NCBI GenBank assembly: GCA_024654575.1
Contig: JANLHG010000005.1
Location: 65,260-129,259 of the forward strand
Length of the DNA stretch: 64,000 nt
Origin: Patescibacteria group bacterium
GTDB taxonomy: Bacteria; Patescibacteriota; Minisyncoccia; Phycocordibacterales; PALSA-1337
Direction: 5' to 3'
Made by a program: the position numbers and the translations under genes. Below the pieces are notes generated by a model that worked only from the letters and a program-made list of their open reading frames with translations, was not told the DNA's origin and did no database searches. Below, one piece after another: positions 2,024 to 56,777 of this stretch; within the stretch, counting starts at the first letter, position 1; every line of letters starts with the position of its first letter.

Positions 2024-2024
2024 A

Positions 2025-2573
2025 TTAATTCAAAATTTCTTTTTCCTTTTTTGCGAATAATTCTTCCAACATTTTATTTGCTCCATCTACATTCTTTTGC
2101 AATTCGTTCTTAAAACGAAGTGCGTCATCTTTTCCCATGTCCTTTTCTTTCTCTTTCATCTGAATATCTCTCACTACTGTATCACGCTGTATTCTTATAG
2201 AAACTTTAGCTTGTTCTAATCTTTCTTTAGCAATTTTTACTATCTGTTCTCTTCGTTCGGCAGTTAATTCTGGAAAAGAAACTCTCACACCTTTATCATC
2301 AAGAGCTACAGCAACACCCAAATTAGCCATACCGATAGCTCTTTCAATTTCTTTTGACATAGATGAGTCCCAAGGCGTAATGCGTATGCTTCTAGAGTCC
2401 TCAACAGAAACATTTGCTACTTGATTTATTGGTGTTTTTGAACCATATGATTCTACAAAAATACCATCAAGAAGCGACGGATTTGCTCGCCCAGTTCTTA
2501 TTCCAGAAAATTCCTTTTTCAACCATTCCTCAATCTCTTTTATTTTTTGTTTAAATTTTGAAAAATCGTACAT
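2025..2573 (-). CDS. frr: Ribosome recycling factor
   Basis: 182 aa; GIRTGRANPSLLDGIFVESYGSKTPINQVANVSVEDSRSIRITPWD aligns to Frr over full length. Confidence 0.9.
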   Translation of the reverse strand: MYDFSKFKQKIKEIEEWLKKEFSGIRTGRANPSLLDGIFVESYGSKTPINQVANVSVEDSRSIRITPWDSSMSKEIERAIGMANLGVAVALDDKGVRVSFPELTAERREQIVKIAKERLEQAKVSIRIQRDTVVRDIQMKEKEKDMGKDDALRFKNELQKNVDGANKMLEELFAKKEKEILN

Positions 2574-2579
2574 GAGAGT

Positions 2580-2590
2580 ATTATATCACA
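2580..2590 (-). promoter_or_regulatory. Extended -10 (TGaTATAAT) 6 nt upstream of frr ATG; leaderless-type promoter
   Basis: Minus-strand reads ...aaatgTGaTATAATactctcATG; no Shine-Dalgarno sequence. Confidence 0.5.
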
Positions 2591-2693
2591 TTTGGATTTA
2601 TAGCCTATAAAATCGAAACCCCGCAAAAGCGGGGTTTCTCGGAGGCCGAAGCCATAATACTTATTATATTAGCAAATACAAAAAATATGTCAA

Positions 2694-2730
2694 GAAAAAA
2701 CACCTCCGAGTCGAAACTCGAAGGTGTTAG
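2694..2730 (-). terminator. Rho-independent terminator (12-bp stem + U7) on minus strand
   Basis: Minus strand: aacaccttcgag-tttcga-ctcggaggtgtt followed by ttttttc; directly followed by TTGACA..TAATATAAT promoter-like sequence upstream of frr. Confidence 0.6.
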
Positions 2731-2940
2731 GTTTTAATGGAACCGATGTTCCATAAGTAGTTTTTTCTGCCGACAACCGCCGGGAAGTAAGTCATACTCA
2801 GGACTTAATTGTTGTAATTGGAATTCATACTTTCATTCTTGCACATAATTCCACTAATTATACAAGAACTATCGCTGTTAATACCTATTGAATTTCAATA
2901 GATCAACCGGGACCCGCGAAACGATATATCCGATTCCACT
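2694..2940 (-). ncRNA. Candidate ~240-nt non-coding RNA between holB and frr (own promoter and terminator, no ORF)
   Basis: Near-consensus promoter TTGACA-16nt-TATACT (plus coords 2945..2972) right after holB stop; strong intrinsic terminator at 2694..2730; no ORF >=60 aa either strand; no recognisable tmRNA/RNase P/SRP motifs. Confidence 0.3.
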
Positions 2941-2944
2941 ATAA

Positions 2945-2972
2945 AGTATAGCATACCCAGTTTTATTGTCAA
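2945..2972 (-). promoter_or_regulatory. Sigma70-like promoter TTGACA-16-TATACT on minus strand
   Basis: Minus strand: cTTGACAataaaactgggtatgcTATACTttatag. Confidence 0.5.
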
Positions 2973-2983
2973 GCGTTTAACTA

Positions 2984-3631
2984 TCAAACAATTAATGCTA
3001 CGTGTTCTAAAATCATTTTGACTGAGGGAGCCCTGTCTGATAGATAATTTTTAAACTTGATGATTTCTTCAATATGGCGAAAATCTTTTTTAGCGACAAG
3101 CTCTCTTTCAATACCATTGATAAATTCAATAGCATCCATTTTTTCAACAATCAATTTTGTCATTGCTAACCGTTCTGAAATAGCTAATTTTATAAACTTT
3201 TTAGCATTATCATTTATTTTTAAAGTAGACAAAAAAGGAGAAAACATTAGTCGTGAACGCAATGTAGGCATAAATATTTCTGATGACGGAGTTATTATAA
3301 AAAAATGATTTCCCGAAAATGGTTCCTCAAAAATCTTTAAGAGAGCATTTTGAGCTTCGCGAGTAATAAAATTAGTGGAAATTATGAAAATTTTTTTACT
3401 AGATTCATCAAATGATTTAGAAAGATGAAATTCTTTTATTTCCCTACTATCATCAATAGTCAATGTGTCATACTGGCGAACCCAAAGGTCTGGATTGCCA
3501 AATAATTTAATTTGAAAATCTTCCTCAAGAAATCTGTGTAATTCCTTAAGAATATCGTCCCTATTCCCTTCAATACAATAGGCGTGATGAAGTGTGCCGG
3601 TATTTTTAAGAGTATCAATAATCAATTGCAT
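2984..3631 (-). CDS. holB: DNA polymerase III delta' subunit (short form)
   Basis: MQLIIDTLKNTGTLHHAYCIEGNRDD...KKIFIISTNFITREAQNALLKIFEEPFSGNHFFIITPSSEIFMPTLRSRLMF: clamp-loader delta' box motifs. ORF track extends to 3763, but the first 44 aa look spurious; start at ATG 3631 is preceded by TGtTATACT + 6 nt. Confidence 0.6.
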   Translation of the reverse strand: MQLIIDTLKNTGTLHHAYCIEGNRDDILKELHRFLEEDFQIKLFGNPDLWVRQYDTLTIDDSREIKEFHLSKSFDESSKKIFIISTNFITREAQNALLKIFEEPFSGNHFFIITPSSEIFMPTLRSRLMFSPFLSTLKINDNAKKFIKLAISERLAMTKLIVEKMDAIEFINGIERELVAKKDFRHIEEIIKFKNYLSDRAPSVKMILEHVALIV

Positions 3632-3664
3632 TAAAAAAGTATAACATATGCTACAATTGCCCGT

Positions 3665-4567
3665 ATGAATTTTAATTTTACAAAATATAAAACCAAAGAA
3701 AATAAAAAAATCGCCATAATAGCTATAATTATAGCGATTATAGCAGGTGGTAGTGAATACCAATATTACTCCCTTATTATCAAAATAGACGATAATAATA
3801 AAAAAATAGCCTCTACGACAACAGAATTTGAAGTCAGAATAAAATCACTAGAAGACGGAGTAATCGGTGTAAAAAATGACAATAAAACTCTGAGCGATGT
3901 CGTCCAAAGTAAGACCAGTTCTTATGATGCACAAATAGGAAATATTGCTGGAACTGTCGGTTCTCTTGATAAACTTTCAAAAACTGACCCACAATTAATA
4001 GAAAAATATTCAAAGGTCTTTTTTCTAAATGAACACTACTCTCCATCTACACTAGCCACAATAACCCCAGAATTTCTTTTAAACGAAGAAGCTAGATTAC
4101 AATTTCACGCTAGTGCCTACCCTTTTTTATTAAAACTTCTACAATCAGCTAAAAACGATAAAATAGAACTCAAAGTTATTTCTGCCTATCGTTCATTTGG
4201 AAAACAATCTTCTTTAAAGAAAAGTTACAATTTTATTTACGGTGCAGGCACAGCAAATCAATTTTCTGCTGATCAGGGATATTCTGAACACCAACTTGGT
4301 ACCACAATAGATTTTACCACCCCAGAAGTCGGTTCAAGTTTTAATAATTTTGAGAAAACAGAGGCCTATGACTGGCTTCTTAATAATGCTTATAAATATG
4401 GCTTTATCCTTTCTTATCCAGAAAAAAATACATACTATGAATTTGAACCATGGCATTGGCGATTTGTTGGTGTTGATCTTGCACAAAAATTAGAACGCGA
4501 ACATATGACTTTTTATAATACCGATCAAAGAGAACTAGATAAATATCTTCTTCTTATTTTTAACTAA
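3665..4567 (+). CDS. Membrane-anchored peptidase M15 (VanY / D-Ala-D-Ala carboxypeptidase-like)
   Basis: N-terminal TM (IAIIAIIIAIIAGG); C-terminal SAYRS..Q, SEHQLGTTIDF and EPWHWRF motifs (LAS-family H-x-D..H zinc ligands). TGcTACAAT -10 lies 7 nt before ATG. Confidence 0.7.
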   Translation: MNFNFTKYKTKENKKIAIIAIIIAIIAGGSEYQYYSLIIKIDDNNKKIASTTTEFEVRIKSLEDGVIGVKNDNKTLSDVVQSKTSSYDAQIGNIAGTVGSLDKLSKTDPQLIEKYSKVFFLNEHYSPSTLATITPEFLLNEEARLQFHASAYPFLLKLLQSAKNDKIELKVISAYRSFGKQSSLKKSYNFIYGAGTANQFSADQGYSEHQLGTTIDFTTPEVGSSFNNFEKTEAYDWLLNNAYKYGFILSYPEKNTYYEFEPWHWRFVGVDLAQKLEREHMTFYNTDQRELDKYLLLIFN

Positions 4568-5689
4568 CTATTCTTCAATATCTGGTTTATCAATAGCTAT
4601 TGTCTCCATTTCTTGTGAGATTCCCGTTATACGTAATACATCTTTGTCTATTTTTTTAAATTCTTTGTTTGAATTATTAAAATGACTAACGACTGTTCCC
4701 AGTGAAGTGCCTAATTTTTTATGATAATCTTCAAAACTTTTCAAGTGTTTACCTAGTTGTTCTACTCTAACAATAATATCTTTTGCCGTTTCTTCAATCT
4801 GAAGAGCTTTAAGACCTTGAAGAACTGTTTGCAAAAAAGCCAGAAAAGAAGTTGGCGAAACAATAAGGACATGTTTTTCTTTAAATGCATACTCAATTAA
4901 ATCACGAGTATTTATTTTTACTCCCCCTACTTGAGCGACCAATAAATCATAATAAATTGCTTCGTGCGGAATAAACATAAAAGCAAAATCCATAGTACCT
5001 TCTGCTGGTTTTACATATTTTGCCGTTTCATCAATTCGCCCTTTTAAATCGTTTTTAAAAGCTTTTTCCAATCGCTCTCGTTCTGTTGGATCTTTTTCTT
5101 CAACTAATCTATTATAATTCTCAAGAGAAAATTTTGAATCAATAGGAATAATTTTTTCTTTAACAAAAACTACTGCGTCTACAATTGTTCCATCAGTAAA
5201 TGGATATTGCATTTGATAGCTACCCGGAGGCAAAACATTTTTTAATAATGTTTCTAAATAATATTCACCTAAAATCCCTCGTTGTTTCGGATTCTTCAAA
5301 ATATCTTGCAAATTTTGCAACTGGTCAGCAAAAGAAACCACTTGGCGATTTGTTTCATCAAGTTTTGTCAAACCTTGAGTGACTTCTTTTATCAGTTTTT
5401 GTGATTCTGAAAATTGTCGATGAACAGCATCACCCATATCACGAGCTGTTTGACCCATTTTAGTATCAACAGTTCTGGCTAAATCATTTACTTGTTGAAG
5501 AATAAGTTTAAAACCGGTATCATCTTGTTTAGGTAATTCTTTTTTTCCACGACTAAAAAGCAGATAGACTAATACCAGATTAACAATAAAAAGAATGATA
5601 ATAAAGAAAGTAATTGTATCCACAGACACAATTATATCAGAATATGCTATAATATAAACATGTCTCTTTATAATGATATAAAAAACCAA
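4568..5689 (-). CDS. rmuC: DNA recombination protein RmuC
   Basis: N-terminal TM + long coiled coil + C-terminal RmuC-type nuclease-like domain (DFAFMFIPHEAIYYDLL). True start is probably GTG at 5623/5629, which would avoid a 30-bp head-on overlap with the divergent gene at 5660. Confidence 0.7.
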   Translation of the reverse strand: MVFYIIIKRHVYIIAYSDIIVSVDTITFFIIILFIVNLVLVYLLFSRGKKELPKQDDTGFKLILQQVNDLARTVDTKMGQTARDMGDAVHRQFSESQKLIKEVTQGLTKLDETNRQVVSFADQLQNLQDILKNPKQRGILGEYYLETLLKNVLPPGSYQMQYPFTDGTIVDAVVFVKEKIIPIDSKFSLENYNRLVEEKDPTERERLEKAFKNDLKGRIDETAKYVKPAEGTMDFAFMFIPHEAIYYDLLVAQVGGVKINTRDLIEYAFKEKHVLIVSPTSFLAFLQTVLQGLKALQIEETAKDIIVRVEQLGKHLKSFEDYHKKLGTSLGTVVSHFNNSNKEFKKIDKDVLRITGISQEMETIAIDKPDIEE

Positions 5690-6109
5690 ATAAAAGACGC
5701 CATGCGTGCTAGAGATGCGATTAGACTAAATGCTCTACGCAACCTTGCTGCTGGATTACAAACAGAACTTATAGCCAAAAAAACCACTGACGTTGAATTG
5801 AAAGATGACGAAACTCTAGCGGTGATAAGACGTTTAGTTAAACAACGAAAAGATTCTATTGAACAATTTACCAAAGGTGGACGCGATGATTTAGTTAATG
5901 ATGAAAAAGCTGAATTAGCGATACTTGAAACATATCTACCCGCAATGATGAATCAAGAAGATATTAAAAAAATTGCTGAAGCTAAAAAAACAGAACTAGG
6001 AGTAACTGACAAAACAAAAACTGGTATTCTCATGTCGGTAATAATGAAAGAATTGAAAGGTAAAGCTGATGGAGCTGATGTTAAAGCAGTAGTGGAAAGT
6101 TTATTTTAG
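5660..6109 (+). CDS. GatB/YqeY domain-containing protein
   Basis: 149 aa; IKDAMRARDAIRLNALRNLAAGLQTELIAKK...LETYLP pattern typical of YqeY; TATAAT 6 nt upstream of ATG. Confidence 0.7.
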   Translation: MSLYNDIKNQIKDAMRARDAIRLNALRNLAAGLQTELIAKKTTDVELKDDETLAVIRRLVKQRKDSIEQFTKGGRDDLVNDEKAELAILETYLPAMMNQEDIKKIAEAKKTELGVTDKTKTGILMSVIMKELKGKADGADVKAVVESLF

Positions 6110-6113
6110 TATA

Positions 6114-7082
6114 CTAAACTATAAAATTTTTGACTGAATAAAGGTCTTCTTCTTTATTTTCTTCTATTATTATTTCCTCTTTAGGACGATCGTCTATCGG
6201 TTTTTCGCCTTCAGTAATAAATCGTTCCATCATTTCCGTCTTCGGTTTTAATTTATTTGAATTCACTAAATCTAAAATAACTCTCAAATCATTAATTGAA
6301 AAGAAATCAATAGTAATTTTGCCTCCCACTTCCCTTTTTTCAATATGCACTCTAGTGCCCAATGATTCCGATAATTTCGTTTCTAGTTCAATGGTTTCTG
6401 GATTTAAAAAAGTTTCTTTTTTTCGTGTTTTTTCAACGGCAATTCTTCTTGCTATATTTTCGGACTCTCTAACAGAAAGTTTTTTAAATAAAATTTCTTT
6501 AAAAAGAGTTCCTCTTTCTTCTGGACGGTCATTTAACATAAGCAACGGTCTTGTGTGTCCCTCAGAAATTTTTCCTTCAGAAAGAGCAACTATAATATCC
6601 TCAGGTAATGCAAGTATTCTAATTGAATTTGAAACATATTCCCTACTTTTACCCATTTTTTCTGCAATCTGCAGATGCTTCATATTAAACTCTTTAACAA
6701 GTTGTTCAAATGCTCTAGCGCGGTCAACTGCATTTAAATCTTCTCTTTGTAAATTTTCAATAATAGCAAGTTCTAATTTAACCCTAGCATCTTCCTCGCC
6801 ATTTCTAATAATAGCTGGTACTTGTATCAATCCTGCTAGTTTTGCTCCACGTAGTCGTCTTTCACCTGAAATAAGCTCATATTCAACTGCAAGTCCGCCA
6901 TCTTCTTTAGCAAATTCTTTTCTAGTTACAACGAGAGGTTGGAGAATTCCATACATGCGAATTGACTCCGATAAATCTTTAAGTCGAGCTTCATCAAATT
7001 CTCGACGTGGTTGATATGGATTAGGTTTTACTTTCTCCACTTCAATCCAAAATATTGAGTCCCCATAAAATTGAGATGTCAT
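6114..7082 (-). CDS. parB: Chromosome partitioning protein ParB/Spo0J
   Basis: GILQPLVVTR...YELISGERRLRGAKLAGL...HTH segment KHLQIAEKMGKSREYVSNSIRIL; ParB box motifs. Confidence 0.8.
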   Translation of the reverse strand: MTSQFYGDSIFWIEVEKVKPNPYQPRREFDEARLKDLSESIRMYGILQPLVVTRKEFAKEDGGLAVEYELISGERRLRGAKLAGLIQVPAIIRNGEEDARVKLELAIIENLQREDLNAVDRARAFEQLVKEFNMKHLQIAEKMGKSREYVSNSIRILALPEDIIVALSEGKISEGHTRPLLMLNDRPEERGTLFKEILFKKLSVRESENIARRIAVEKTRKKETFLNPETIELETKLSESLGTRVHIEKREVGGKITIDFFSINDLRVILDLVNSNKLKPKTEMMERFITEGEKPIDDRPKEEIIIEENKEEDLYSVKNFIV

Positions 7083-7148
7083 AGAAATATTATAACATAC
7101 TAATTTATGATAGCTGAAAACTCAAGTATGTTGTATATTATATTCATT

Positions 7149-7233
7149 GCCGGGATGGCGGAATTGGTAGACGCACACGACTCAAAATCGTGCGGAGTGA
7201 TCCATGAGAGTTCGATTCTCTCTCCCGGCACCA
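7149..7233 (+). tRNA. tRNA-Leu (anticodon CAA), long variable arm, encoded CCA
   Basis: Acceptor stem gccggga/tcccggc, anticodon loop ctCAAaa, long extra arm, T-arm gttcgattc, then a-cca. Confidence 0.85.
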
Positions 7234-7264
7234 ACGGTGGATTTTATGATATAATTAAAAAATA

Positions 7265-8341
7265 ATGCGCTTCGTACAGCCAAACATTTTTTTATACTTT
7301 TTTCTTCTAATTTTGGGAATCAGTGGTTTCTTTTTTGCAGTTATTTGGCCTCAAGCAATAGGATTTTACGCTTTTATCACTTTTGCGGCAGCTGGAGGGC
7401 TTGGTGTAACACTATATATTTACCACACAAAAAAAAATCATAGACAACTTGTTTGCCCAATCGGTTCGAACTGCAATGCCGTCATAACCAGCCGATACTC
7501 TAAATTTTTAGGCGTGCCACTAGAATATTGGGGAATGTTTTATTACTCTATTATTTTTATCACTTATATCATTTTAATTTTCGCTCCTTTTTTATTTTCT
7601 AAGTTTTTTTTGTCTGGATTAGTAATGTTTACCGCCACTGCGTTTCTTTTTTCTTTGTATCTTTTGTTTGTACAAGGATTTCTTTTGCGTCAATGGTGCA
7701 TTTGGTGTCTTCTTTCCGCAACACTCTCTATCGGAATTTTTATTGTTTCTCTTGCAAGTGTTGATTTCGTAGTAGCTTTTTTGGCTGATATAATAATTAT
7801 TATCCAAGCGATTCACTCTTTGGGATTCATACTTGGAATAGGTGGGGCTACAGCAACTTTGTTTCTTTTCTTCAAATTTTTACACGATTTAGATATTAAT
7901 GAAAGCGAATCACAAATACTTAAAGGAATTTCAGAATTGGTATGGTTCGGTCTTGCTCTTACTTTGATAAGTCAGTTTGCCTTTTATATTGTCTCTGCTA
8001 AAACACTAGCTTTTTCTGGCCCATTTTTAGCTCAAACTATTGCCCTTTTTATGGTCGCGATTAGTAATGCTGTTTTAATGATAATTTTTGCGCCATTTTT
8101 AGCAATGATTCCATTTAATGAAATAACAGAAGAACATCGCTATTCCCCTCTTAAATCTCTAAAAAAGCCATTTTTTCTTATAGGAGCAATCGCGCTTTCA
8201 TCTTGGTATTTTTCTTTTTTAATGAATTATTCACCAGAATATGAATTGATTGTTTTGTTTTCAGTATATATTATAGTTATCATAATATCGGTCGGAACAG
8301 CATTGTTTTTGGAAAAAAGTATTAGTAAGGCCAAGATTTAA
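7265..8341 (+). CDS. Vitamin K epoxide reductase (VKOR) family membrane protein with additional C-terminal TM domain
   Basis: Polytopic membrane protein; loop cysteines CPIGSNC and CxxC active site (CIWC) in a TM helix, as in bacterial VKOR/DsbB analogues. Confidence 0.55.
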   Translation: MRFVQPNIFLYFFLLILGISGFFFAVIWPQAIGFYAFITFAAAGGLGVTLYIYHTKKNHRQLVCPIGSNCNAVITSRYSKFLGVPLEYWGMFYYSIIFITYIILIFAPFLFSKFFLSGLVMFTATAFLFSLYLLFVQGFLLRQWCIWCLLSATLSIGIFIVSLASVDFVVAFLADIIIIIQAIHSLGFILGIGGATATLFLFFKFLHDLDINESESQILKGISELVWFGLALTLISQFAFYIVSAKTLAFSGPFLAQTIALFMVAISNAVLMIIFAPFLAMIPFNEITEEHRYSPLKSLKKPFFLIGAIALSSWYFSFLMNYSPEYELIVLFSVYIIVIIISVGTALFLEKSISKAKI

Positions 8342-12027: not shown

Positions 12028-12856
12028 TGAATAGTTTCATCATTTTTTTAGTACCAACACCAACTGAACTAGAGCCGATTTTTTTATTATCAATACTAAT
12101 AATAGGCACAATATCTTTAAAACTGCCAGTAATAAAAATCTCATCAGCATTTGTGACTTCTTTCACACTCACCAATCTTTCCTCAATTTTGAAATGTTTT
12201 TGAGCCAACTCAAGTATAACTTTTCGTGTAATACCTTGAAAAATACTTTCTTTGGATGTTATAAGTTTATCACTTTTAAACATAAAAAAATTACTCATTG
12301 AAGCTTCAAGAACCTTATCTTTAGAAGTAAAAAGTACTTCAATAGCGTTATGTTTTTCTCGATAATCCTGAAGAGAAATAGCTCTAATGTAATTAATGGT
12401 TTTAATTTCTGGCAATAATCTTTGGTGCTCAAAAGTAACAAGTGATGCTCCTTCTGTATATATTTTTTTAGGAAGAGATTTCCATTCTTCAGCGAGAATA
12501 TAAAATGTTGGCTTTTCTTTATGATAACAAACACCTTTTTCTGTTTTACCACCAGTCAAAATAAGTCTAAAATTAGTACGTTTAAAATTATGTTTTTTAA
12601 TAAGTTCTTCTAAAACTTCAGCAATTTTTTTTCTAGAATAAGGAATTTTTAAATTAAGTGTTTTTGCAGATTTTTCAAATTGATCAAAATGGTCATCTAA
12701 TCTAAATGGTTTGCTATTTGCAGTTGTAATTCCTGCATAAATACCATAACCACGCAAAAGGCCGATATCTTCAATTGATACTTTGGCCTCTTCTGTAGGC
12801 ATAATTACATTATTTAAAAAACAATATCGCATTTGTCTTATACTATATGATATCAT
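12005..12856 (-). CDS. Class IV (D-amino-acid/branched-chain) aminotransferase; likely D-amino acid transaminase
   Basis: Fold-type IV PLP enzyme pattern (RGYGIYAGI, ILTGGKTE, catalytic K region). Probable true start at MPTEE (12799). Context between murD and alr suggests a D-Ala to D-Glu transaminase. Confidence 0.65.
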   Translation of the reverse strand: MISYSIRQMRYCFLNNVIMPTEEAKVSIEDIGLLRGYGIYAGITTANSKPFRLDDHFDQFEKSAKTLNLKIPYSRKKIAEVLEELIKKHNFKRTNFRLILTGGKTEKGVCYHKEKPTFYILAEEWKSLPKKIYTEGASLVTFEHQRLLPEIKTINYIRAISLQDYREKHNAIEVLFTSKDKVLEASMSNFFMFKSDKLITSKESIFQGITRKVILELAQKHFKIEERLVSVKEVTNADEIFITGSFKDIVPIISIDNKKIGSSSVGVGTKKMMKLFNDYTKSF

Positions 12857-12862
12857 TACATT

Positions 12863-13999
12863 ATGGTCAAAAGACTCATACGCTATTTACGAGCATTACA
12901 ATTTCACTACACTCCACTTGTAGAAATTACTATTTCCAAAGGACGAATGCTTCATAACTTACATACTTTTCAAAAAATAAATTCTGAAGTAAAAATTGCT
13001 CCGGTACTAAAAAGTAATGCTTACGGTCATGACCTAAAAATTATTGCCAAAATAATAGATAGAGAAAATATCCCTTTTATTGTTGTTGACTCCTATCATG
13101 AAGCTATGATTCTCCGTAATGAAAGAATACAATCGTCAATTCTGATTATTGGCTACACAGCGATTGAAAACATTATTTATAATAAACTTCCTAACACCAC
13201 TTTTGTTATTACGGGATTTGAACAGTTACAAGAAATAGTGGCGTTAGTCACGAAACCCACTCATTTTCATATAAAAATTGATACCGGAATGCATAGACAA
13301 GGAATAATCTCTAATCAAATTAGTGAAGCACACGAACTAATAAATACAAATAAAAATATTATTATTGATGGGGTTTGTTCTCATTTTGCAGACGCAGACG
13401 GTAAAGATCTAGACTTCACTAAAATTCAGATTAATGAATGGAATAAATTAGTAAAACAAGTTATACAGGAATTTCCAATGATAAAATATCGACATATTTC
13501 AGCAACCAGCGGTGCTTTATATATAAATGAAATAGATGCAAATGTTTTGCGACTTGGTATTGGACTTTATGGTGTGGATCCAAATGGTAAATTAGACCTT
13601 AAGCCAGTTTTAGAAATGAAATCAATAATAAGTGGAACAAAGATAATAGAAAAAGATCAAAAAATAGGTTACAACTGCACATATGAAGCTAAAGAAAAAA
13701 TGAAAATTGCTATTATTCCCGCTGGATATTATGAAGGAATTGATAGACGACTTTCTAATAAAGGTTTTTTAAAAATAGATAATATATTTTGTCCCATTGT
13801 AGGAAATATCAGTATGAATATAACCGCAATTGATATTACCAATGTTCCTAATGCAAAATTCAAAACACCTGTTACCATCATCAGTTCAAACCCTGGAGAT
13901 AAAAATTCAATTGAAAATATTGCTAGAATAAACAGTGCAATCCCCTATGACATTATGGCTCACATTCCACAACAATTGCGACGAAAAGTCACTACATAG
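12863..13999 (+). CDS. alr: Alanine racemase
   Basis: KIAPVLKSNAYGHDL PLP-lysine motif (AVxKAnAYGHG consensus); two-domain length of 378 aa. Confidence 0.85.
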   Translation: MVKRLIRYLRALQFHYTPLVEITISKGRMLHNLHTFQKINSEVKIAPVLKSNAYGHDLKIIAKIIDRENIPFIVVDSYHEAMILRNERIQSSILIIGYTAIENIIYNKLPNTTFVITGFEQLQEIVALVTKPTHFHIKIDTGMHRQGIISNQISEAHELINTNKNIIIDGVCSHFADADGKDLDFTKIQINEWNKLVKQVIQEFPMIKYRHISATSGALYINEIDANVLRLGIGLYGVDPNGKLDLKPVLEMKSIISGTKIIEKDQKIGYNCTYEAKEKMKIAIIPAGYYEGIDRRLSNKGFLKIDNIFCPIVGNISMNITAIDITNVPNAKFKTPVTIISSNPGDKNSIENIARINSAIPYDIMAHIPQQLRRKVTT

Positions 14000-14024: not shown

Positions 14025-14106
14025 TGCGCCGGGTTGGACTCGAACCAACGATGCCCGAAGGCCGGAGATTTACAGTCTCCTGGAATAGCCGCTATCCGAC
14101 CGGCGC
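14025..14106 (-). tRNA. tRNA-Tyr (anticodon GTA), long variable arm
   Basis: Reverse complement gcgccgg...ggagactGTAaatctcc...long extra arm...ggttcgagtcc...ccggcgc-a. Confidence 0.85.
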
Positions 14107-14143
14107 ATAACATATAGAATATCATAAAAAACTCAAAAATCCA

Positions 14144-16840
14144 CTAGACAGAAGTTACTTCCAATTCCCTCTTCTCAAAAAAAGTTCCATTTCTTCTACC
14201 TTTTTTTATGTCAAAAGCAAATTCACCATTTTTTATGTAGATACTTATAACCCCACCTTTCAAAACATTTTGAGAAATAATCATATTAGCTACAGGTGTA
14301 AGAATTTTATTTTGAATAATTCTTTTTAGTGGTCGTGCACCGTATTGCGGATTATATCCCTCTTTAGTTAAATAAGATAAAACTTCTTCTGAAATTTCGA
14401 GAGTAATTTCTTTCACTTTCAGACGTTCTTTTACGAGCTCAACTTGAATTTTAACAATATCTTCAATAGCTTTAGAAGAAAGCACATCAAAAACAATAAT
14501 ATCATCTAGACGATTCAAAAACTCCGGACGAAAATGGTCTTTAAGATTACTCAAAACTTTATCTTTCATTCCAACATAATCATCCACTTTTGTAGCGTCG
14601 GAGGTAGTAAAACCAATTTTCTGCATTCGTTCAATGTATTGAGCACCGACATTTGAGGTCATTATTATGACAGTATTCTTAAAATTAACTGTTCGTCCTT
14701 TTGAATCAGTCAATCGCCCATTATCAAGAACTTGAAGAAGAACATTAAAAACTTCCGGATGAGCTTTTTCAATTTCATCAAAAAGAATTACCGCATAAGG
14801 TCTGCGTCTGATTATTTCAGTTAATCCTCCACCCTCATCATGACCAACATATCCTGGTGGTGCACCGATAAGTTTTGAAACGGAATGTTTTTCCATATAT
14901 TCCGACATATCAACACGAACAAGAGCTTTTTCATCATCAAACATAAATTCTGCCAAAGCTTTCGTAAGTTCAGTTTTTCCAACTCCTGTTGGACCTAAAA
15001 ATATAAACGAACCAATAGGTCGATTAGGATCAGATATTCCCGCTCTAGACCTTTTAACCGTATCAGCTATTTTTCTGACGGCTTCATCCTGTCCAATAAT
15101 CCGTTTTTTGATTTCCTTGTCCATACGATTTAGTTTTTGTGCTTCCTCTTCAAGCATTCTAGACACAGGAATGCCAGTCCATCTAGCTACGACTTCCGCA
15201 ATATCCTGCTCTGTAATTTCTTCTTTCAAAATTCGTCTTGATGATTGAAGTTTTTTCAATCTCTTTGATTTATTATCAAGTTCTTTTTCTAAAGTCGGGA
15301 TTTTTCCATATCTTATCTCTGCTGCTTTACCTAAATCAGCCCGTGATTCAGCACCTTCAGCTTCTAGTCGCAAAGTTTCTAAATCTTTTTTATCTTTTTT
15401 GATACCCATCAACATTTCCTTTTCATTTTTCCACTTCAATTCAAGTTCACTAGTTTTTTCTTTCAAATCACCGATTTCTTGCTCAATTTTTTTAATTCGC
15501 GCTTTAGCATTTTTGTTTGCCTGCGTAGGCAGGGTTGTCTCTTTTTTGAGAGCTTCTTTTTCAATTTCCAAACGCATAACTTTTCTACGAGTTTCTTCTA
15601 GAATAGGAGGCATATTTTCTAAAGATATTTTTAAACCAGATGCTGCTTCATCTATTAAATCCACGACTTTATCTGGTAAAAATCTATCCGTGATATATCT
15701 TGATGCCAAATTGACAGCAGAAATAATAGCATCATCAGTAATTCTCACTCCGTGAAAAAGTTCATATTTTTCTTTAAGTCCACGAAGAATAGCGATAGCA
15801 TCAGTATCTGTTGGTTCATTAACATAAACAGGTTGAAAACGACGAGTTAATGCTGGATCTTTTTCAATATGTTTTTGATACTCACGAAGTGTTGTAGCTC
15901 CGATAGCTCTTAATTCACCTTTGGATAAAGCTGGTTTCAACATATTTGAAGCATCCATAGAACCTTCTGCAGCACCTGCTCCAACAATAGTATGAATTTC
16001 ATCTATAAAAAGAATAACTTTTCCTTCAGAACGTTCCACTTCTTTTAAAATATTTTTTAATCTTTCTTCAAATTCTCCACGATACTTTGTACCAGCAATT
16101 AAAGAACCTAGATCAAGTGAAATAAGTTCTTTATCACGAAGTGATTCTGGTACATCACCCATAGCAACACGAATAGCCAAACCTTCCACAATAGCTGTTT
16201 TACCGACACCAGCTTCACCTATTAAAATAGGATTATTTTTTGTACGACGAGAAAGAATTTGAATAATTCTAGAAATTTCATTATCTCTACCAATGACTGG
16301 ATCAAGTTTATTTTCTCTCGCTAATTTTGTTAAACTTCTAGCGTATTTTGCTAGTGCTCTAAATTTTTTTGGCTGACCAACATCCGTAACTTTAGTATTT
16401 TTTAATTCTTGCACAACATTCAACACAGCTGTTCTTTCTATTCTAAAACGATTAAGAATTTCTCTTGCTGAGCTCGGAATATCAAACATAGCTAAAAATA
16501 AATGTTCAGTAGAAATGAATTCATCTTTAAGGGCTAGAGCAACTTTTGCTCCACCTTCAATAACTTGAGCTAAATCTGGAGTTAAATAAATTTGATATGA
16601 CGGTGAAAGAGTATTACCTCCTTCCGGAGCATCTAAACTTTCAATGAGTGAATCAGTCAAAAGCATTGTATCTACTTCTAATCGGTCCAAAATTGACGCC
16701 ACCATACTCTCCTCTTGAAGAATGAGAGCTGTGAGTAAATGAATGGGATTAACATGATTTTGACCACGTTCTATCGCCAGCTCATGAGCTTTTCGTACGG
16801 CCTCTTTTGCTTTTGTAGTAAAATGGCTAAATGGTGGCAT
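14144..16840 (-). CDS. clpB: ATP-dependent chaperone ClpB (two AAA+ modules + middle coiled-coil)
   Basis: 898 aa; N-domain repeats, Walker A GEAGVGKT and GPTGVGKT, long M-domain coiled coil between NBD1 and NBD2. Confidence 0.9.
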
Positions 16841-16856
16841 ATTTAATTAAATTGTA

Positions 16857-17675
16857 CTACTTATTTATACTATCTGTCAATAAATTTGCAATAATAGCTG
16901 AAGGGAGATAGAAACTTTTGATTTCATTATCTGAATTAAGTTTTGTAATTTTTAATCCAACAACTTCACCAGAAAGATTAATGAGTGGGCTTCCATTTAA
17001 AGAAGAACGACTATCAATATCTGTTTTGATTGCTGACGCAGTTTTATCAGTAGTTGTCGCATTATCATCTCCGATTACTTCAGAAACAATACCCATAGCG
17101 ACATTCATAGTTATTTTACCACCTAGTGAAAGTACACTTTGACCAAGATGTGCTGGAATTTTAGAAAGAATAACAGGAACAAACGGTCCTGTTGACGTAA
17201 TACTAAATAGAGCAAGACCTTCATCAGAAGTTTTTTGTAATTGAAGCGGATAATTTTTTCCTCCAGAAACAAGAGCTACATAATTTCCTTGAGCTGACAC
17301 AACATCTTTATCTGCAATAATTTTTCCATCTTTAGTAACAAAAACACCGAGACCTAAAAAACTATCAGGTGTAGTAGAAGAAGTGGTTGAATTTGTGGAA
17401 TAGATACGAACCACACTATCAGAGTTTTTATTTATGGCCTCAATGGCTTGGTCCTCCGAACGTACAACAATTGTTTCTTTTGTAACTACAGCGGCACTTT
17501 GTGTATTAGGTACTACCTTTTCAATAGTCCTTTCAACTACTCGATTGACTACCTGAGGTACACTTGGGGTACTCTGATCCACAAGAGAAACTGTCACAAT
17601 CCCAGTAGTAATAGAAGTGACAAAAGCCACCAATAAAGCTACGAGTACGATTTGATGTTTAGTAAGATGTTCCAT
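16857..17675 (-). CDS. Membrane-anchored HtrA/trypsin-fold protein with substituted catalytic His and Ser (putative pseudo-protease)
   Basis: Aligns to DegP S1C core, but TNNHVV -> ADKDVV and GNSGG -> LNGSP; the Asp motif DEGLALFSI is retained; no PDZ domain. Confidence 0.45.
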   Translation of the reverse strand: MEHLTKHQIVLVALLVAFVTSITTGIVTVSLVDQSTPSVPQVVNRVVERTIEKVVPNTQSAAVVTKETIVVRSEDQAIEAINKNSDSVVRIYSTNSTTSSTTPDSFLGLGVFVTKDGKIIADKDVVSAQGNYVALVSGGKNYPLQLQKTSDEGLALFSITSTGPFVPVILSKIPAHLGQSVLSLGGKITMNVAMGIVSEVIGDDNATTTDKTASAIKTDIDSRSSLNGSPLINLSGEVVGLKITKLNSDNEIKSFYLPSAIIANLLTDSINK

Positions 17676-18802: not shown

Positions 18803-19290
18803 TGATGCATCTTATAGACACAATCACTAATCATGTGGGGATAATCCTCATATCCCTCATCATCCTGTTGATAACACTAGCTTTTTGGTTAATTTATCTA
18901 CAACTTAAAATAAATAAACTTCTACTTGGAACTGGCTCAAAAAACATAGGAGACTCCTTGGTACACATAGATAATAATTTAAAAGATGTAGCTAAGTTTA
19001 GAATTGAATTAGAAGAATATCTACGAACAGTAGAAAAAAGAGTGCGGAAAAGTACACAAGGTATTCATACTGTTCGTTTTAATCCATTCAAAGGTACAGG
19101 TGACGGAAGTAATCAAAGTTTTGCAACAGCTTTGATAAATCAAGAAGGAAATGGAGTTGTCTTTTCTAGTATTTATTCTAGAGACAGAGTAAGTGTCTTT
19201 TCTAAACCATTGATTGCTCATAAATCTGAATTTGAACTTTCTAAAGAAGAATTAGACGCTATTTCAGAAGCTGTAAAAAAATTACAATAA
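18803..19290 (+). CDS. DUF4446-like membrane protein
   Basis: N-terminal TM then RFNPFKGTGDGSNQSFATALINQEGNGVVFSSIYSRDRVSVFSKP pattern typical of DUF4446. ORF track starts at 18733, but that overlaps the divergent desulfurase start; ATG at 18803 is more likely. Confidence 0.45.
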
Positions 19291-19293
19291 ACT

Positions 19294-20808
19294 ATGGAAA
19301 AAACATCTTCAGCTCAAAATAATATTGGTATTTCGCGTCCTCCAATTGTCGTCATAATGGGACATATTGATCATGGAAAATCCACCTTACTTGATTACAT
19401 AAGAAAATCAAATACAACATCTGGTGAAGCAGGAGGTATTACGCAACACTTAGGAGCTTATGAAGTAACACAAGCAAGTAAAAAAATCACCTTTTTAGAC
19501 ACCCCCGGACATGAAGCATTTTGTGGAATTAGAACTAGAGGAGCAAATGTTGCTGATTTAGCTATTTTAGTTGTGTCAGCGGAAGATGGAGTCAAAACTC
19601 AAACACTTGAAGCATTACAATGTATCAAAAGTGCTGAACTTCCATATATTGTAGCTATAAATAAAATTGACAAACCAGAAGCCAATGTGGAAAGAATAAA
19701 ACAAAACTTAGCCGAGAACGAAATATATCTTGAAGGTTATGGAGGAGACATCCCGTATGTTCCAATATCAGCCATTACAGGTGATGGAATTCCAGAGCTT
19801 CTTGATACCATACTTCTTGTCGCAGAAATGGAAGAATTAAAAGCAGAACCAAATAAACCAGCAGAAGGTTTTGTTATAGAAGCTAACCTTGATAACAAAA
19901 AAGGAGTATCCGCCACCCTTCTCATAAAAAATGGCACAATTAAAACTGGAATGTACATAGTAATCGGTGATACTTTTTCTCCAATAAGAAATATTGAAGA
20001 TTTCCAAGGTAAAAAAATAAAGGAAGCGACATTTTCAAGTCCAGTCAAAATATTAGGATTTAATAAAGTTCCCGAAGTTGGTTCATCATTCGTAACTTGT
20101 AAAACAAAAAAGGAAGCTGAAAATTTGGCAGAAAAAAATAAAATTTCTGAAATATCATCAAAAAAAGTAACCACCTCCACCGAGGGATTCGGCGAGCCAA
20201 ACAGAATAATCATTCCCATAATTATAAAAACAGATGTTACTGGTAGTATGGAAGGAGTTAAACATGAACTTAACAAAATAAAACTTGAACGGGTTGCGAT
20301 TAAAATAATTCAAGAAGGCATAGGTGATATTACTGAAAATGATATAAAAATTGCGGATGGTATGAAAGATATAATCATAATAGGATTTAATGTGTCGGTT
20401 GATTCAAAAGCTAGAACTCTAGCAGAAAGATTGGGAGTGAGTATAGAAATATTTAAAGTAATTTATAAAATAAATGAATATGTTGAAAAAATTGCTTTAG
20501 GAAGAACACCTAAAATTAAAACTGAAGAAACTACTGGTACCGCTAAAATCATAAGAGTATTTAGTAAAAATAAAGATAAACAAATACTAGGTGGAAAAGT
20601 ACAAACAGGCATACTTAATGTAGGTTCAGAAGTTAAAATAATAAGAAGAGAAACGGAAATCGCAATAGGTAAAATACGAGAACTTCAATCTCAAAAATTA
20701 AGAGTTTCAGAAGTGAAAGAAGGATTTGAATTTGGAACAATGATTGAATCTAAAATAGAAATTATGCCCGGAGATAAAATTGAGGCCTTTAAGATAATTG
20801 AAAAATAA
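19294..20808 (+). CDS. infB: Translation initiation factor IF-2 (short form: G domain through C2)
   Basis: [29 protein letters not shown]-motifs; C-terminal beta-barrels; followed by rbfA. Confidence 0.85.
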
Positions 20809-30694: not shown

Positions 30695-31253
30695 TGTGTT
30701 TATTAAATATTAGCCCATAATGATGTTCCCCAGCTGATATTGATGAATCAAAATCAAAACCAGCTTTTTCAAATAATGATTTTGTAATTGCTTCTGGAAC
30801 AAGTGTTTTTGGACCAAGTGGACTTTTGTCTGACCAATCAACAATCAAAACTTTTCCTCCCGGTTTAAGAATACGCTTTATTTCCAAACAAAAATTATCT
30901 TTATGTTCAACCTGAAAAAGAATATTAGAAGCAATAGCTTTGTCAATTGAACCATCTCTCAAGCGAGTACCTCCTATGTTTTCAACATCTCCTAAAATCA
31001 CTTCTACATTAAAAAGATGTTCGTGAACTGCGTTGGTTTTTAATTTTTCTAATAAATCTTTTTGTACTTCTATAGCATAAACTTTGCCCGCTCCTCCAAC
31101 TTTTCTAGCTGATTCAATTGTGTAAAAACCACTCCCAGCACCCAGGTCAGCCACTTGCATCCCGTGTCCTATTTTAAATTGAGTAACATTTTTTTCTGGG
31201 TCACTAAAAAACATGTGGTAATTATAGCATAAAATAAAAACAACCCCCTGCAT
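30687..31253 (-). CDS. Class I SAM-dependent methyltransferase
   Basis: VADLGAGSGFYT (motif I), KVYAIEVQ (motif II), ILKPGGKVLIVDW (post-II/III). Confidence 0.7.
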   Translation of the reverse strand: MQGVVFILCYNYHMFFSDPEKNVTQFKIGHGMQVADLGAGSGFYTIESARKVGGAGKVYAIEVQKDLLEKLKTNAVHEHLFNVEVILGDVENIGGTRLRDGSIDKAIASNILFQVEHKDNFCLEIKRILKPGGKVLIVDWSDKSPLGPKTLVPEAITKSLFEKAGFDFDSSISAGEHHYGLIFNKHNV

Positions 31254-31610: not shown

Positions 31611-31901
31611 CTAAAATATTGCCATTTTTAATCCTAAACCACCTACAACTTTCTTCAAAAAAGATAATGTAGGATTTGCCCGTCCAGCTTCAAAACGAGC
31701 TAATACCGATTGTGCAATACCAATACGTTCTGCAAGTTCTCTTTGAGTCAAACCCTGTTTTCCTCGTGCTTTAATAATAGCTCTAATAATACTGAATTCG
31801 AATTCAAGATCTTCATAAGCCTTTTTAAATCCAGGCTTTTTCATAAGATCTTTATGAATCTCGTCAAAGGGAATAAGTTTTATATTATCTTTAGTTTTCA
31901 T
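31611..31901 (-). CDS. higA: HTH XRE-family antitoxin (HigA-like)
   Basis: GLTQRELAERIGIAQSVLARFEAGRANPTLSFLKKV: cro/C1 HTH; directly downstream of HigB-like toxin. Confidence 0.65.
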   Translation of the reverse strand: MKTKDNIKLIPFDEIHKDLMKKPGFKKAYEDLEFEFSIIRAIIKARGKQGLTQRELAERIGIAQSVLARFEAGRANPTLSFLKKVVGGLGLKMAIF

Positions 31902-31925
31902 ATTTATATGATACCATATATGGTA

Positions 31926-32252: not shown

Positions 32253-34694
32253 TTACAAACAAATCATTGAAGCAATGGAATCCCCTTCGCGAAGTTTCAT
32301 AATACGAACACCTTGAGTTTGTCTACCGAGTGATGGAATTTCTTTAATATCTACACGAATGACTTGACTCTTTTTTGAAATGGCTACTAGTTCTTCATGT
32401 TCTTCTGTAACTACCTTTGCTCCGATAAGCTTTCCTGTTTTTGGAGTGACTTTCATTGTGATAATTCCAGAACCGGCTCTTTTTTGAATTTTATATTCTC
32501 CAACATCTGTTTTTTTTCCATAACCATTTCCACTAATAACAAGCAGATGTGCTTCTTTTACATTATTTTTAACAATATCAGCACTAATGATGAAATCATC
32601 TTTATCAAGTTTCATTCCTGTCACTCCAGAAGCTCCCCGTCCCATTTCTCTAACATCCGATTCTTTAAATCTAATAGCTTGTCCTTGACTAGTAGCAAGC
32701 ATCACACTATCTCCTTTACCACAAAAAGACACTGACACTAATTCATCATCATCTTTTAAAGTAATGGCAATCAAACCACTTCTTCGTACATCATGAAAAC
32801 TTTTCGCAGCCACTCTTTTAGCGACACCATTTTTTGTAACCATAATAAGAGATAACTCAGCAGTAGCTTTAGTTTCTTTAGGCATAGGTAAAATAGATGT
32901 TACTTTTTCATCTTCATTTAGAGAAAGAAAATTCATAATTGATTTACCTTTTGTGGCGCGTTTTCCTTCAGGAACATCATACATTTTTATTTGATAGGCC
33001 TTACCTTTATCAGTAAAAAATAGTAGGTCATTATGAGTAGAAGCCGTAATAAACTTTGTCACAAAATCTTCTTCTTTCGTATCAAGGTCAACAACTCCAA
33101 CCCCACCACGTCTTTGTTTACGATATTCTTCAGGGTCAGTTCTTTTAATATATCCTCCAGAAGTATAAACCAACACACTCTCAACATCTGGAATTAAATC
33201 TTCATCCGAAATTGTTTTTACTCCACTTTTTATGACTTTTGTTTTCCTGTCATCTCCATACTTTTGACCGATTTCTTGTAGTTCTGATTTTATAATCTCC
33301 TGTATTTTTTTATTACTTCCCAAAATCTCTTTGAGTTTTGCTATTAATTCTTGCATTTCCTTCAATTCATCTTCAATTTTCTTTCTTTCAAGACCGGCAA
33401 GTTTTTGAAGTCGCATTTCAAGAATAGCTGTAGCTTGTTTATCAGAAAATTTAAATTCTTTCATTAAAGCGGTATGAGCTTCAGAAACATCTTTTGATTT
33501 TCTAATAAGTGAAATAATTTTATCAATATGGTCAAGAGCTTTCTTTAAACCAATTAAAATATGCTCTCGTTCTTCCGCTTTGTTTAAATCAAACTTTGTT
33601 CGTCTTCTTACTACATTAGCTCTATGTAAAATAAATTCTTCAAGCATTGATTTTAGAGACAATGTCTGAGGAATACCATTAACCAGTGCTACCACATTAA
33701 AATGAAAAGCTTCTTCCAACTGTGTATGTTTATAAATATAATTTAAAACTTTTTGAGGATGAGCACCTTGTTTTAAATCAATAGCAATTCTAATATCTTT
33801 AGCGGATTCATCACGGAGTCCTTTGATACCTTCAAGTTGTTTATCGCGTACTAAACCTGCAATTTTTTCTATCAACTCCGCCTTGTTCACTCTGTATGGA
33901 ATTGAAGTGATTATAATTTGAAATGTTCCTTTTTTATCTTCTACTACTTCTGCTTCACCACGACAAACAACCCCTCCACGACCAGTAGCATAAGCGTGAT
34001 GCATATCTTTTTCACTATAAACAAGTCCTCCTGTTGGAAAATCTGGTCCTTTTATAAATTGAAGTAAATCTTCTGTCGTAGCATCTTTATTATCTATAAG
34101 ATGAACAGTGGCATTAACGACTTCCCTGAGATTATGAGGAGGGACATTAGTCGCCATTCCAACCGCGATACCCAAAGTTCCATTCAACAAAAGATTTGGA
34201 ACAGATGCTGGAAGAACTTCCGGTTCTTTTCTTGTACCGTCATAATTAGGTCTCCAGTCAACGGTTTCTTTTTCCAAATCTCGAAGAATTTCAGAAGACA
34301 GACGAGACATTTTAGCTTCGGTATAACGCATTGCCGCCGCTGCATCTCCATCAATAGAACCAAAATTTCCTTGACCAATAATCAAAGGGTATCTAAAAGA
34401 GAACTCTTGAGCCATTTTGACCATAGAATCATAAACAGCAACATCTCCGTGAGGATGGTATTTTCCGAGTACATCTCCCACTACCGCCGCTGATTTTCTA
34501 AATCGTCCACCAGCAGTCAAACTCATTTCATTCATTGAGAACAAAATTCTTCTATGAACGGGTTTTAAACCATCTCTAATATCGGGTAATGCTCTAGCAG
34601 TAATAACCGACATTGCGTAGTCAAGATACGACTCTCGCATTTCAGTAGTTATATTACGAGCAATGATGCCCTTATTTTCACCTTCTTTAGCCAT
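32253..34694 (-). CDS. gyrA: DNA gyrase subunit A
   Basis: [12 protein letters not shown], active-site Tyr region AAMRYTE, GyrA-box QRRGGVG in C-terminal beta-pinwheel; 813 aa. Confidence 0.9.
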
Positions 34695-34717
34695 ATTACT
34701 ATGTATTATAGCATACT

Positions 34718-35665: not shown

Positions 35666-35791
35666 AAAATCCTCCCTTAATCCCTCCTTTAAAAAGTAGG
35701 GAAAACACGGAAGCGAAAGTGTTTTTTAAAGGTCTGGCCGACTAGAAGGAGGAGATCCGAGGACCTTTCAAAAAACACTTTCGCTGAAGTA

Positions 35792-37372: not shown

Positions 37373-37390
37373 CTAGATATTATAGCACTT

Positions 37391-43501: not shown

Positions 43502-43510
43502 ATTTTTTAA

Positions 43511-50356: not shown

Positions 50357-50359
50357 ACT

Positions 50360-51509: not shown

Positions 51510-51524
51510 ACTACAAGTATATCA

Positions 51525-56765: not shown

Positions 56766-56777
56766 AAGATTATTATA

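Follow-up and report, generated by a model that had tools for sequence, protein, structure and literature searches.

What directs transcription and translation to the start of a gene in a bacterium whose genes carry a promoter element directly in front of the start codon? The question is raised by a 64,000-nucleotide (nt) stretch of a Patescibacteria group bacterium (GenBank assembly GCA_024654575.1, contig JANLHG010000005.1, positions 65,260 to 129,259; hereafter the window), in which a reading made from the sequence alone had noticed -10 hexamers a few nucleotides upstream of the start codons of several core genes, and had proposed that these genes are expressed as leaderless mRNAs. Patescibacteria account for a large part of bacterial diversity, are nearly all uncultured and possess unusual, reduced ribosomes. 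The combination of a -10 box 6-7 nt before the ATG with an almost complete lack of Shine-Dalgarno sequences indicates that the mRNAs most likely begin at the start codon. Judging from the sequence, we consider it quite probable that transcription from extended -10 promoters begins at the A of the ATG or no more than a few bases from it, and that the resulting 5'-AUG mRNAs are translated without Shine-Dalgarno pairing; what we infer here is the position of the transcription start and the engagement of the mRNA by the ribosome.

The window has a GC content of 33%, its genes lie mostly on the minus strand and use the standard genetic code, and among its products are type IV secretion pilins and type IV pseudopilins. 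In public data, its frr gene is closest to those of metagenome-assembled genomes that carry the labels Candidatus Saccharibacteria, Paceibacterota, Adlerbacteria or "Patescibacteria group"; a search for an identical Frr protein returned no record. We place the genome within Patescibacteria, probably towards Parcubacteria/Paceibacteria. For counting, we used 72 genes whose starts were fixed mechanically as the first ATG of each open reading frame (ORF), which avoids circularity; gene identities were checked by Pfam. A box was defined as a TAnnnT hexamer with at least 5 of 6 matches to TATAAT at a spacer of 5-8 nt before the start, and dinucleotide shuffles (n = 2000) of the same 45 nt upstream of each start served as the control. 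Such a box precedes 21 of the 72 genes, as opposed to 4.3±2.0 in the shuffles, none of which reached 21 (0/2000); other ATGs have a box at this spacer in 3.2% of 1934 cases (binomial p ~5e-15 relative to the genes). The spacer profile has its maxima at 6 nt (11 genes) and 7 nt (5 genes), and when three starts are corrected and the interval is widened to 5-11 nt, about 30 of the 72 genes have a box. The excess of TAnnnT hexamers at 5-9 nt corresponds to 30% of the genes. A count that is independent of gene calls gives the same picture: the exact hexamer TATAAT is found 108 times when both strands are counted, an ATG comes 6 nt later in eight cases, and all eight ATGs open an ORF of at least 60 amino acids, compared with 0-2 such ORFs at other spacers. 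Of the 19 exact TGnTATAAT sequences in the window, 11 have a start codon 6-10 nt further on, 3 lie between genes and have longer leaders, and 5 fall within genes.

The same arrangement is found in related Patescibacteria. We surveyed about 0.9 Mb of related contigs with GC contents of 31-55%, searching 90 loci in all, with a set of 10 frr loci (37-51% GC) and a set of 80 metagenome loci with parB orthologues (58-89% identity, 31-55% GC) that comprises 589 non-redundant genes. In the frr loci, a box at 5-8 nt precedes 29 of 149 genes, where about 6 would be expected, and the maximum is again at spacer 6. In the parB loci, the corresponding numbers are 103 of 589 and 22.3±4.6 in shuffles; spacer 6 alone accounts for 71 genes (37 with TGn), compared with about 5 per background spacer. 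The enrichment is present in every GC class, including the 50-65% class (12 vs 1.3), and the removal of parB itself leaves a TAnnnT excess at 5-9 nt equal to 20% of genes. A start-independent count of 503 extended -10 sites yielded 60 that are followed at spacer 6 by an ATG opening an ORF of at least 100 amino acids, with a background of about 1. At this spacer, GTG, TTG and CTG are all missing from the 503 sites (0 each), and at spacer 7 there are 18 ATG and 5 GTG codons but no TTG or CTG.

Conservation follows the gene family. A box at 6-9 nt is retained in 43 of 78 parB orthologues, with a spacer of exactly 6 nt in 29, and TGn is present in 34 of the 47 orthologues that have a box at 3-13 nt; an independent tblastn search found a box at 5-10 nt in 35 of 64 parB genes. 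The frr orthologues have it at 5-10 nt in 7 of 10 cases and the alanine racemase orthologues at 6-7 nt in 3 of 4, as do all three pilin-family homologues of the pseudopilin at 51507..51524, for which orthology is not established. By comparison, no box was found in 6 rseP and 3 rbfA orthologues. In an alignment of four close relatives (A1), TGnTATAAT-N6-ATG is invariant at parB, including on one contig of 55% GC, and parB and the tRNA-Leu gene stay divergent in all four as the distance between them ranges from about 35 to 150 nt. Upstream of frr in one relative (L001), a promoter of about 25 nt is conserved and the DNA further upstream is unrelated. A separate observation concerns the relative L012 (OBEQ011286415.1): its GC content is 55% and that of the window 33%, yet the two ParB proteins share 81% amino acid identity. 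TATGcTATAAT-N6-ATG and the divergent tRNA-Leu are still in place on L012, and the difference between the two is a very large GC shift for close relatives.

These counts bear on the explanation that the boxes are a chance by-product of AT-rich intergenic DNA (33% GC), of the choice of the first ATG, or of a repeated element. TAnnnT hexamers are indeed very common in the window (3466 on both strands), and a generic -35/-10 scan of the focal region performed no better than shuffles (22 sites vs 22.7). The shuffles never reached the observed count, however, neighbouring spacer windows, which act as internal controls, are flat, and the enrichment persists in relatives of 50-55% GC, so that we regard chance as extremely unlikely. 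A repeated element is ruled out since the flanks of the sites are unrelated to one another. The scan against shuffled controls put forward in the sequence-only reading, applied here to the whole window and the relatives, detects strong enrichment of -10-like hexamers in the -12 to -6 interval, and the eight motif, spacer and ATG strings quoted in that reading (for frr, holB, the M15 peptidase, YqeY, ParB, IF2, VKOR and ClpB) are all present in the sequence as written. The observation is confirmed and proves stronger than that reading made it.

Several features point to the box being a promoter element. TGn stands immediately upstream of the hexamer at 14 of 29 start-proximal sites, compared with 54 of 912 others (5.9%; Fisher p 9e-10), and the start-proximal sites further show T at -5 and A at -4 before the hexamer, giving TRTGn. 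The sequence TRTGnTATAAT is known as the extended -10 or "-16 region" motif, with which sigma makes contact. In the relatives, the logo of spacer-6 sites has T-17 at 0.62, R-16 at 0.66, T-15 at 0.69 and G-14 at 0.61, and C or T occupies position -1 in 77% of sites; a pyrimidine at -1 belongs to the Y-1/R+1 pattern of start-site choice in bacterial promoters. No -35 consensus was detected in the aligned start-proximal sites. Together with the unenriched -35/-10 scan, this points to promoters that appear to be -35-independent, and not to an absence of promoters; Mollicutes use similar -35-poor promoters. TTGACA is present at clpB and at a candidate non-coding-RNA promoter.

Similar boxes precede untranslated genes, namely those for tRNA-Leu (TATTAT+7), tRNA-Tyr (TGaTATTCT+9) and tRNA-Trp (TGaTATTAT+14). 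The tRNA-Leu(caa) promoter (7128..7149, plus strand) has the same type of box, with TATTAT followed by 7 nt and then the mature G+1, a distance at which the primary transcript may have little or no 5' leader. Across 49 bacteria, the transcription start is centred 7 bp past the -10 element, and TG/TRTG is a known extension (PMC12641261). With this distance and a spacer of 6 nt, the transcription start would coincide with the A of the ATG. Bacterial leaderless genes are generally recognised by a Pribnow box at 6-8 nt from their start (PMC6028130, PMC3160421).

Shine-Dalgarno sequences are correspondingly scarce. The fraction of genes with an anti-Shine-Dalgarno match, also proposed for computation in the sequence-only reading, amounts to 7 of the 72 window genes at a pairing energy of -6 kcal/mol or stronger (calculated with a generic tail), which is near chance; some of the seven are artefacts of mis-called starts, and none of them bears a box. 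The 6-7 nt spacers are A/T/C-rich, and no G-rich Shine-Dalgarno-like stretch was found at any of the eight genes listed in that reading. In the relatives, Shine-Dalgarno 4-mers precede 7-18% of genes, at or near the shuffle level below 50% GC and modestly above it at 50-65% GC (13 vs 6.1), and a 5-mer precedes 41 of 589 genes. AGGAG is enriched there in a small subset only (20 vs 2), which indicates that a few genes do appear to use Shine-Dalgarno initiation. As a dominant mode (GeneMarkS-2 "group A"), it is not borne out, since complementarity is not enriched before most starts in either the window or the relatives.

The contrast genes named in the sequence-only reading are borne out: prfA (34718-35665; GGAGG/GGGAGG) and the gene with its ATG at 45810 (GGAGG+6) have strong Shine-Dalgarno sequences, and those at 24900 and 26721 have only weak AGGA/AAGG matches. 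The prfA leader (35666..35693, minus strand) carries aaaGGAGGgattaaGGGAGGatttt before the ATG and pairs with -11.4 kcal/mol. Strong Shine-Dalgarno sequences at a few genes such as prfA suggest that the organism may retain the anti-Shine-Dalgarno motif. The proposed conventional initiation of a subset holds for prfA and 45810 as real exceptions. Most box-less genes likewise lack a Shine-Dalgarno sequence: about half of the genes have neither signal, the majority of them abutting or overlapping the gene before. The division into leaderless housekeeping genes and a conventional subset is only roughly right; the motif is found also at pseudopilins, a response regulator, an IS200-like transposase and an antitoxin-like HTH gene. 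The leaderless reading as such is supported at the level of sequence by the spacing peak, TGn/TRTGn, the pyrimidine at -1, the ATG preference, the scarcity of Shine-Dalgarno sequences and the conservation of the geometry in orthologues whose flanking DNA diverges.

In the mechanism that we propose, sigma-70-type extended -10 promoters (TRTGnTAtAAT, with no conserved -35) would be fused directly onto start codons. RNA polymerase would start at the purine 7 (6-8) nt past the hexamer, which is the A of the ATG, so the 5' end of the mRNA would be the AUG itself; at spacers of 8-11 nt, a leader of at most about 4 nt would result. The ribosome carrying initiator tRNA would then bind the 5'-terminal AUG directly, without an anti-Shine-Dalgarno sequence pairing with a Shine-Dalgarno one. 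Box-less genes that abut or overlap the preceding gene, such as rseP, would probably be translated by coupling or reinitiation.

Several points weigh against this mechanism. The box is not confined to the first genes of operons, with ribosome-binding sites serving the others: it precedes 20% of divergent genes and, on the same strand, 15% of genes after gaps of more than 50 nt, 26% after 11-50 nt and 13% after 10 nt or less. Such similar frequencies at tight same-strand genes and divergent genes might be a sign that the element works on the RNA. At spacers of 8-11 nt, a short leader is implied instead of none, and upstream promoters could add leadered transcripts of the same genes. Finally, the conserved 16S 3' region was not found in the window or the 90 loci, which contain no rRNA.

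The similar frequencies at tight same-strand and divergent genes also speak for another explanation, in which the TATAAT-like element is no promoter and acts as a non-Shine-Dalgarno ribosome-binding or translation-enhancer motif on leadered or polycistronic mRNA, as in the Bacteroidetes-type "group B" of GeneMarkS-2; with Shine-Dalgarno use at chance level, another initiation signal might be expected. We find a function of this kind improbable. TGn/TRTGn and the pyrimidine at -1 are contacted by RNA polymerase and are not known to take part in ribosome binding, all gene-context classes have TGn at similar rates (39-60% of boxes), and the peak is one base wide and lies at the -10-to-start distance. 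Moreover, boxes of this type also stand before tRNA genes and a non-coding unit, and only 13-26% of the genes in each class have a box, not all of them.

A different possibility is that the boxes are real promoters whose leaderless transcripts are a minority product. Upstream promoters or read-through would then dominate, with Shine-Dalgarno-independent internal initiation on A/U-rich leaders, and the start-proximal promoters would be secondary or regulatory. In its favour, many cassettes lie 3-18 nt past a same-strand gene with no terminator in between, and strong boxes also occur at a distance, with a 24-nt leader at 54082 (minus strand), a 53-nt leader at 28344 (minus) and a second upstream box at 38964 (minus). 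In addition, about half of the genes, those with neither signal, must be translated in some other manner. On the other hand, the ATG at spacer 6 is strongly selected (60 vs about 1 expected) and conserved in orthologues, which is hard to explain if the 5'-AUG transcript is unimportant, and the divergent holB/M15, rmuC/yqeY and parB arrangements leave no room for another promoter within 33-36 bp. We therefore judge it unlikely that leaderless transcripts are the minor product, and retain leaderless initiation from start-fused promoters as the preferred interpretation.

That the start codons themselves are correctly placed is suggested by the encoded proteins. The Pfam domain begins close to the called ATG at residue 2 for N_methyl, 4 for Aminotran_5, 6 for YqeY, 7 for Response_reg and 12 for ParB_N; in YqeY, it is profile position 3 that aligns with residue 6, and the parB orthologues align from residues 1-3. 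In the pseudopilin at 50354..50372, the N_methyl motif spans residues 2-24, which fixes the start codon. Conversely, the longest-ORF starts of holB (TTG 3763), rmuC (TTG 5689) and the methyltransferase gene (ATG 31253) are probably over-extended. Starts placed 6 or 7 nt after the box (3631, 5623 and 31214, respectively) abolish the overlaps of these three genes with their divergent neighbours; the rmuC start at TTG 5689 would overlap yqeY. Two of them, rmuC (+7+GTG) and methyltransferase (+6+ATG), are among at least two cases in or near the range covered by the sequence-only reading that its list did not include.

An expression signal of about 18 bp fits into gaps of 9-18 nt, into the 3' end of an upstream gene and into divergent modules of 29-37 bp, and all three situations are encountered. 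Cassettes in the window often fill the entire 9-18 nt gap or occupy the end of the upstream gene. The holB-like gene for the DNA polymerase III delta' subunit (TGtTATACT+6+ATG at 3629..3646, minus strand, ATG 3631-3629; Pfam DNA_pol3_delta2) and the VanY/M15 peptidase gene (TGcTACAAT+7+ATG at 3649..3667, plus strand, ATG 3665; Pfam VanY) stand back to back with 33 bp between their start codons, and their two TRTG motifs overlap in the palindrome CATATG. Likewise, 36 bp separate the start codons of the divergent rmuC (a 351-amino-acid ORF; TGaTATAAT+7+GTG at 5621..5639, minus strand, GTG 5623-5621; Pfam RmuC) and yqeY, the GatB/YqeY gene (TGcTATAAT+6+ATG at 5645..5662, plus strand, ATG 5660; Pfam YqeY). 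The minimum spacing for two extended cassettes back to back is about 30 bp, and in the relatives 5 of 9 divergent pairs with a box on both sides have 29-37 bp between start codons.

The frr gene for the ribosome recycling factor (2025-2573, minus strand; Pfam RRF) has TGaTATAAT+6+ATG at 2571..2588. The M50 protease gene rseP (rseP-frr region 911-2573, minus strand) starts 1 nt past frr with neither box nor Shine-Dalgarno sequence, and its translation is probably coupled to that of frr on the leaderless message.

Among known systems, the arrangement most resembles the TA-led, or "group C", genes of Actinobacteria and Deinococcus-Thermus, where more than 20% of genes are leaderless (PMC3160421) and which GeneMarkS-2 defines by a Pribnow box 6-8 nt ahead of the start (PMC6028130). 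Shared traits are the -10 box at this distance, the lack of a Shine-Dalgarno sequence, the strong preference for ATG and the proportion of genes or operons affected (about 20-40%). The differences are that the present genes belong to Patescibacteria and to an AT-rich genome, that they have an extended TRTGn promoter without a -35, that the box is also common at tight same-strand junctions, and that the remaining genes do not use Shine-Dalgarno sequences, unlike the leadered and internal genes of group C. Gram-positive bacteria and Mollicutes have extended -10, or "-16 region", promoters that resemble the cassette in having TG at -15/-14 after T-R, together with a -35 that is weak or missing; the TG/TRTG extension and the 7-bp distance to the transcription start are general in bacteria (PMC12641261). 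In the present genes, the promoter is joined to the start codon. Bacteroidetes of "group B" similarly show a genome-wide scarcity of Shine-Dalgarno sequences with a few exceptions kept; in them, the leader of virtually every gene carries an A-rich motif that cannot be a promoter, whereas the box described here marks a subset of genes and has RNA-polymerase-type features. For archaeal leaderless transcripts (Haloferax, Sulfolobus; "group D"), too, promoter and start codon are a fixed distance apart and the mRNA begins at the AUG, but the TATA box is about 26 nt upstream and the transcription and initiation machinery is different. What we propose is an extension of a known leaderless mechanism (Actinobacteria, Deinococcus, archaea) to a new lineage and not a new mechanism.

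Within Patescibacteria, CCTCCT at the 16S 3' end was detected in only 48% of Parcubacteria, in a study in which leaderless genes were not discussed (Tsurumaki et al. 2022, PMC9297842). This figure is consistent with the chance-level Shine-Dalgarno use seen here; that study covers the rRNA and no promoter-fused starts. The transcription starts used so far for Patescibacteria were inferred indirectly from RNA-seq, for Nanosynbacter lyticus only (PMC12641261). A literature search on leaderless genes in Patescibacteria, the candidate phyla radiation, Parcubacteria and Nanosynbacter found no description, although a prior report or an automatic "group C" assignment is possible, and a search pairing "anti-Shine-Dalgarno" with Patescibacteria returned no match by that wording.

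A -10 box 6-7 nt before an ATG offers a rule, applicable to sequence alone, for locating Patescibacteria promoters and true gene starts. It resolves the three over-extended ORFs in the window and is in line with the anti-Shine-Dalgarno loss reported for some members of the group. Gene callers unaware of leaderless starts likely misplace such starts; MetaProdigal, for example, does not model them (PMC8153819). Apart from gene calling, the rule is relevant to the expression of Patescibacteria genes in other hosts and to the 5'-end patterns predicted for co-cultures and groundwater metatranscriptomes. We also advance, tentatively and as a bet that may well fail, the broader idea that a large branch of Patescibacteria effectively gave up Shine-Dalgarno initiation, with an 18-bp TRTGnTATAAT-N6-ATG cassette placed gene by gene as the default, even within upstream gene ends and in back-to-back modules of 29-37 bp, and reinitiation serving the rest. 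If true, the reduced ribosomes, with the anti-Shine-Dalgarno sequence reportedly lost from about half of Parcubacteria, would be tied to 5'-AUG recognition as the main route of finding starts, and start sites would be systematically biased in thousands of metagenome-assembled genomes called with leaderless-unaware tools.

The remaining cassettes of the window are as follows. On the minus strand, parB has TGtTATAAT+6+ATG at 7080..7097 (ATG 7082; Pfam ParB), and on the plus strand the VKOR gene has TGaTATAAT+9+ATG at 7247..7267 (ATG 7265; Pfam VKOR), for which a leader of 2-3 nt is predicted. The alanine racemase gene, also on the plus strand and assigned by Pfam, has TGaTATCAT+6+ATG at 12848..12865. 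At clpB (16838..16880, minus strand, ATG 16840; Pfam ClpB), the arrangement is TTGACA-18-TACAAT+10+ATG, with a predicted leader of 3-4 nt; its -35 and spacer lie within the 3' end of the upstream gene. The infB gene, encoding a short IF2 of 504 amino acids (Pfam IF-2), begins 3 nt past the upstream gene and has TACAAT+5+ATG at 19283..19296 (plus strand, ATG 19294). The 813-amino-acid gene at 32253-34694 was considered as infB and rejected, as it is gyrA and Pfam identifies infB as the 504-amino-acid IF2 at 19294; gyrA has TGcTATAAT+10+ATG at 34692..34713 (minus strand), implying a short leader.

All other cassettes are found on the minus strand. The methyltransferase gene (Pfam) has TGcTATAAT+6+ATG at 31212..31229 (ATG 31214), and an SLT-domain gene has the same sequence and spacing at 37370..37387, 18 nt past the upstream gene. 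A gene for a PAP2/VTT membrane protein has TGaTATAAT+8+ATG at 43499..43518, with a gap of 9 nt. The pseudopilin gene at 50354..50372 (TGtTATAAT+7+ATG) follows its neighbour after 3 nt and has its box within the upstream gene, and the one at 51507..51524 (TGaTATACT+6+ATG) follows after 15 nt. A response regulator gene has TATAAT+6+ATG at 56763..56777 after a gap of 12 nt.

The antitoxin-like HTH_3 gene has TGgTATCAT+6+ATG at 31899..31916. It follows a Gp49/HigB-like gene in the region 31611-32237, and the two resemble a toxin-antitoxin pair. A perfect 18-bp palindrome, GATACCATATATGGTATC (about 31906-31923), overlaps the cassette and is likely an operator. The IS200-like Y1 transposase gene (61880-62569) has a perfect TGgTATAAT+6+ATG at 62552..62569, which indicates that a mobile element here uses a host-style leaderless signal.

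The segment at about 20000-28000 differs from the rest of the window in its GC content (0.39-0.40 vs 0.33) and positive GC skew and is possibly acquired DNA. It contains tRNA genes (Cys, Leu, Lys and Leu) and plus-strand genes with large gaps, encoding an AI-2E transporter, a response regulator and three proteins without a Pfam match. Its Shine-Dalgarno matches are weak, and it has essentially no spacer-6 box.

Additional tRNA box sites, besides that at 7128-7149 (plus strand), are located at 9250 and 14106-14130. The TATTAT 7 nt before the mature 5' G of tRNA-Leu(caa) is kept in the relative L013; the spacers are longer in L011 and L012.

Two small units were noticed upstream of frr. The first is a candidate non-coding RNA of about 200-245 nt (2699-2972, minus strand), which has the best full promoter of the region, TTGACA-16-TGcTATACT (2972..2945). 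No Rfam family was assigned to it, a search of the stretch 2600-2960 returning only tRNAs at the gathering threshold and only sub-threshold chance matches at E<=1, and it is absent upstream of frr in L001. It contains no ORF and ends in a strong terminator (2728..2699), and its 5' and 3' ends pair (minimum free energy -71 kcal/mol, z = -3.3). The second unit (2615-2693, minus strand), just upstream of the frr promoter, consists of TTGACA-16-TAATAT (with TG), a GGCUUCGGCC hairpin and a terminator (2638..2615), and may be a transcript of about 50 nt or merely a double terminator.

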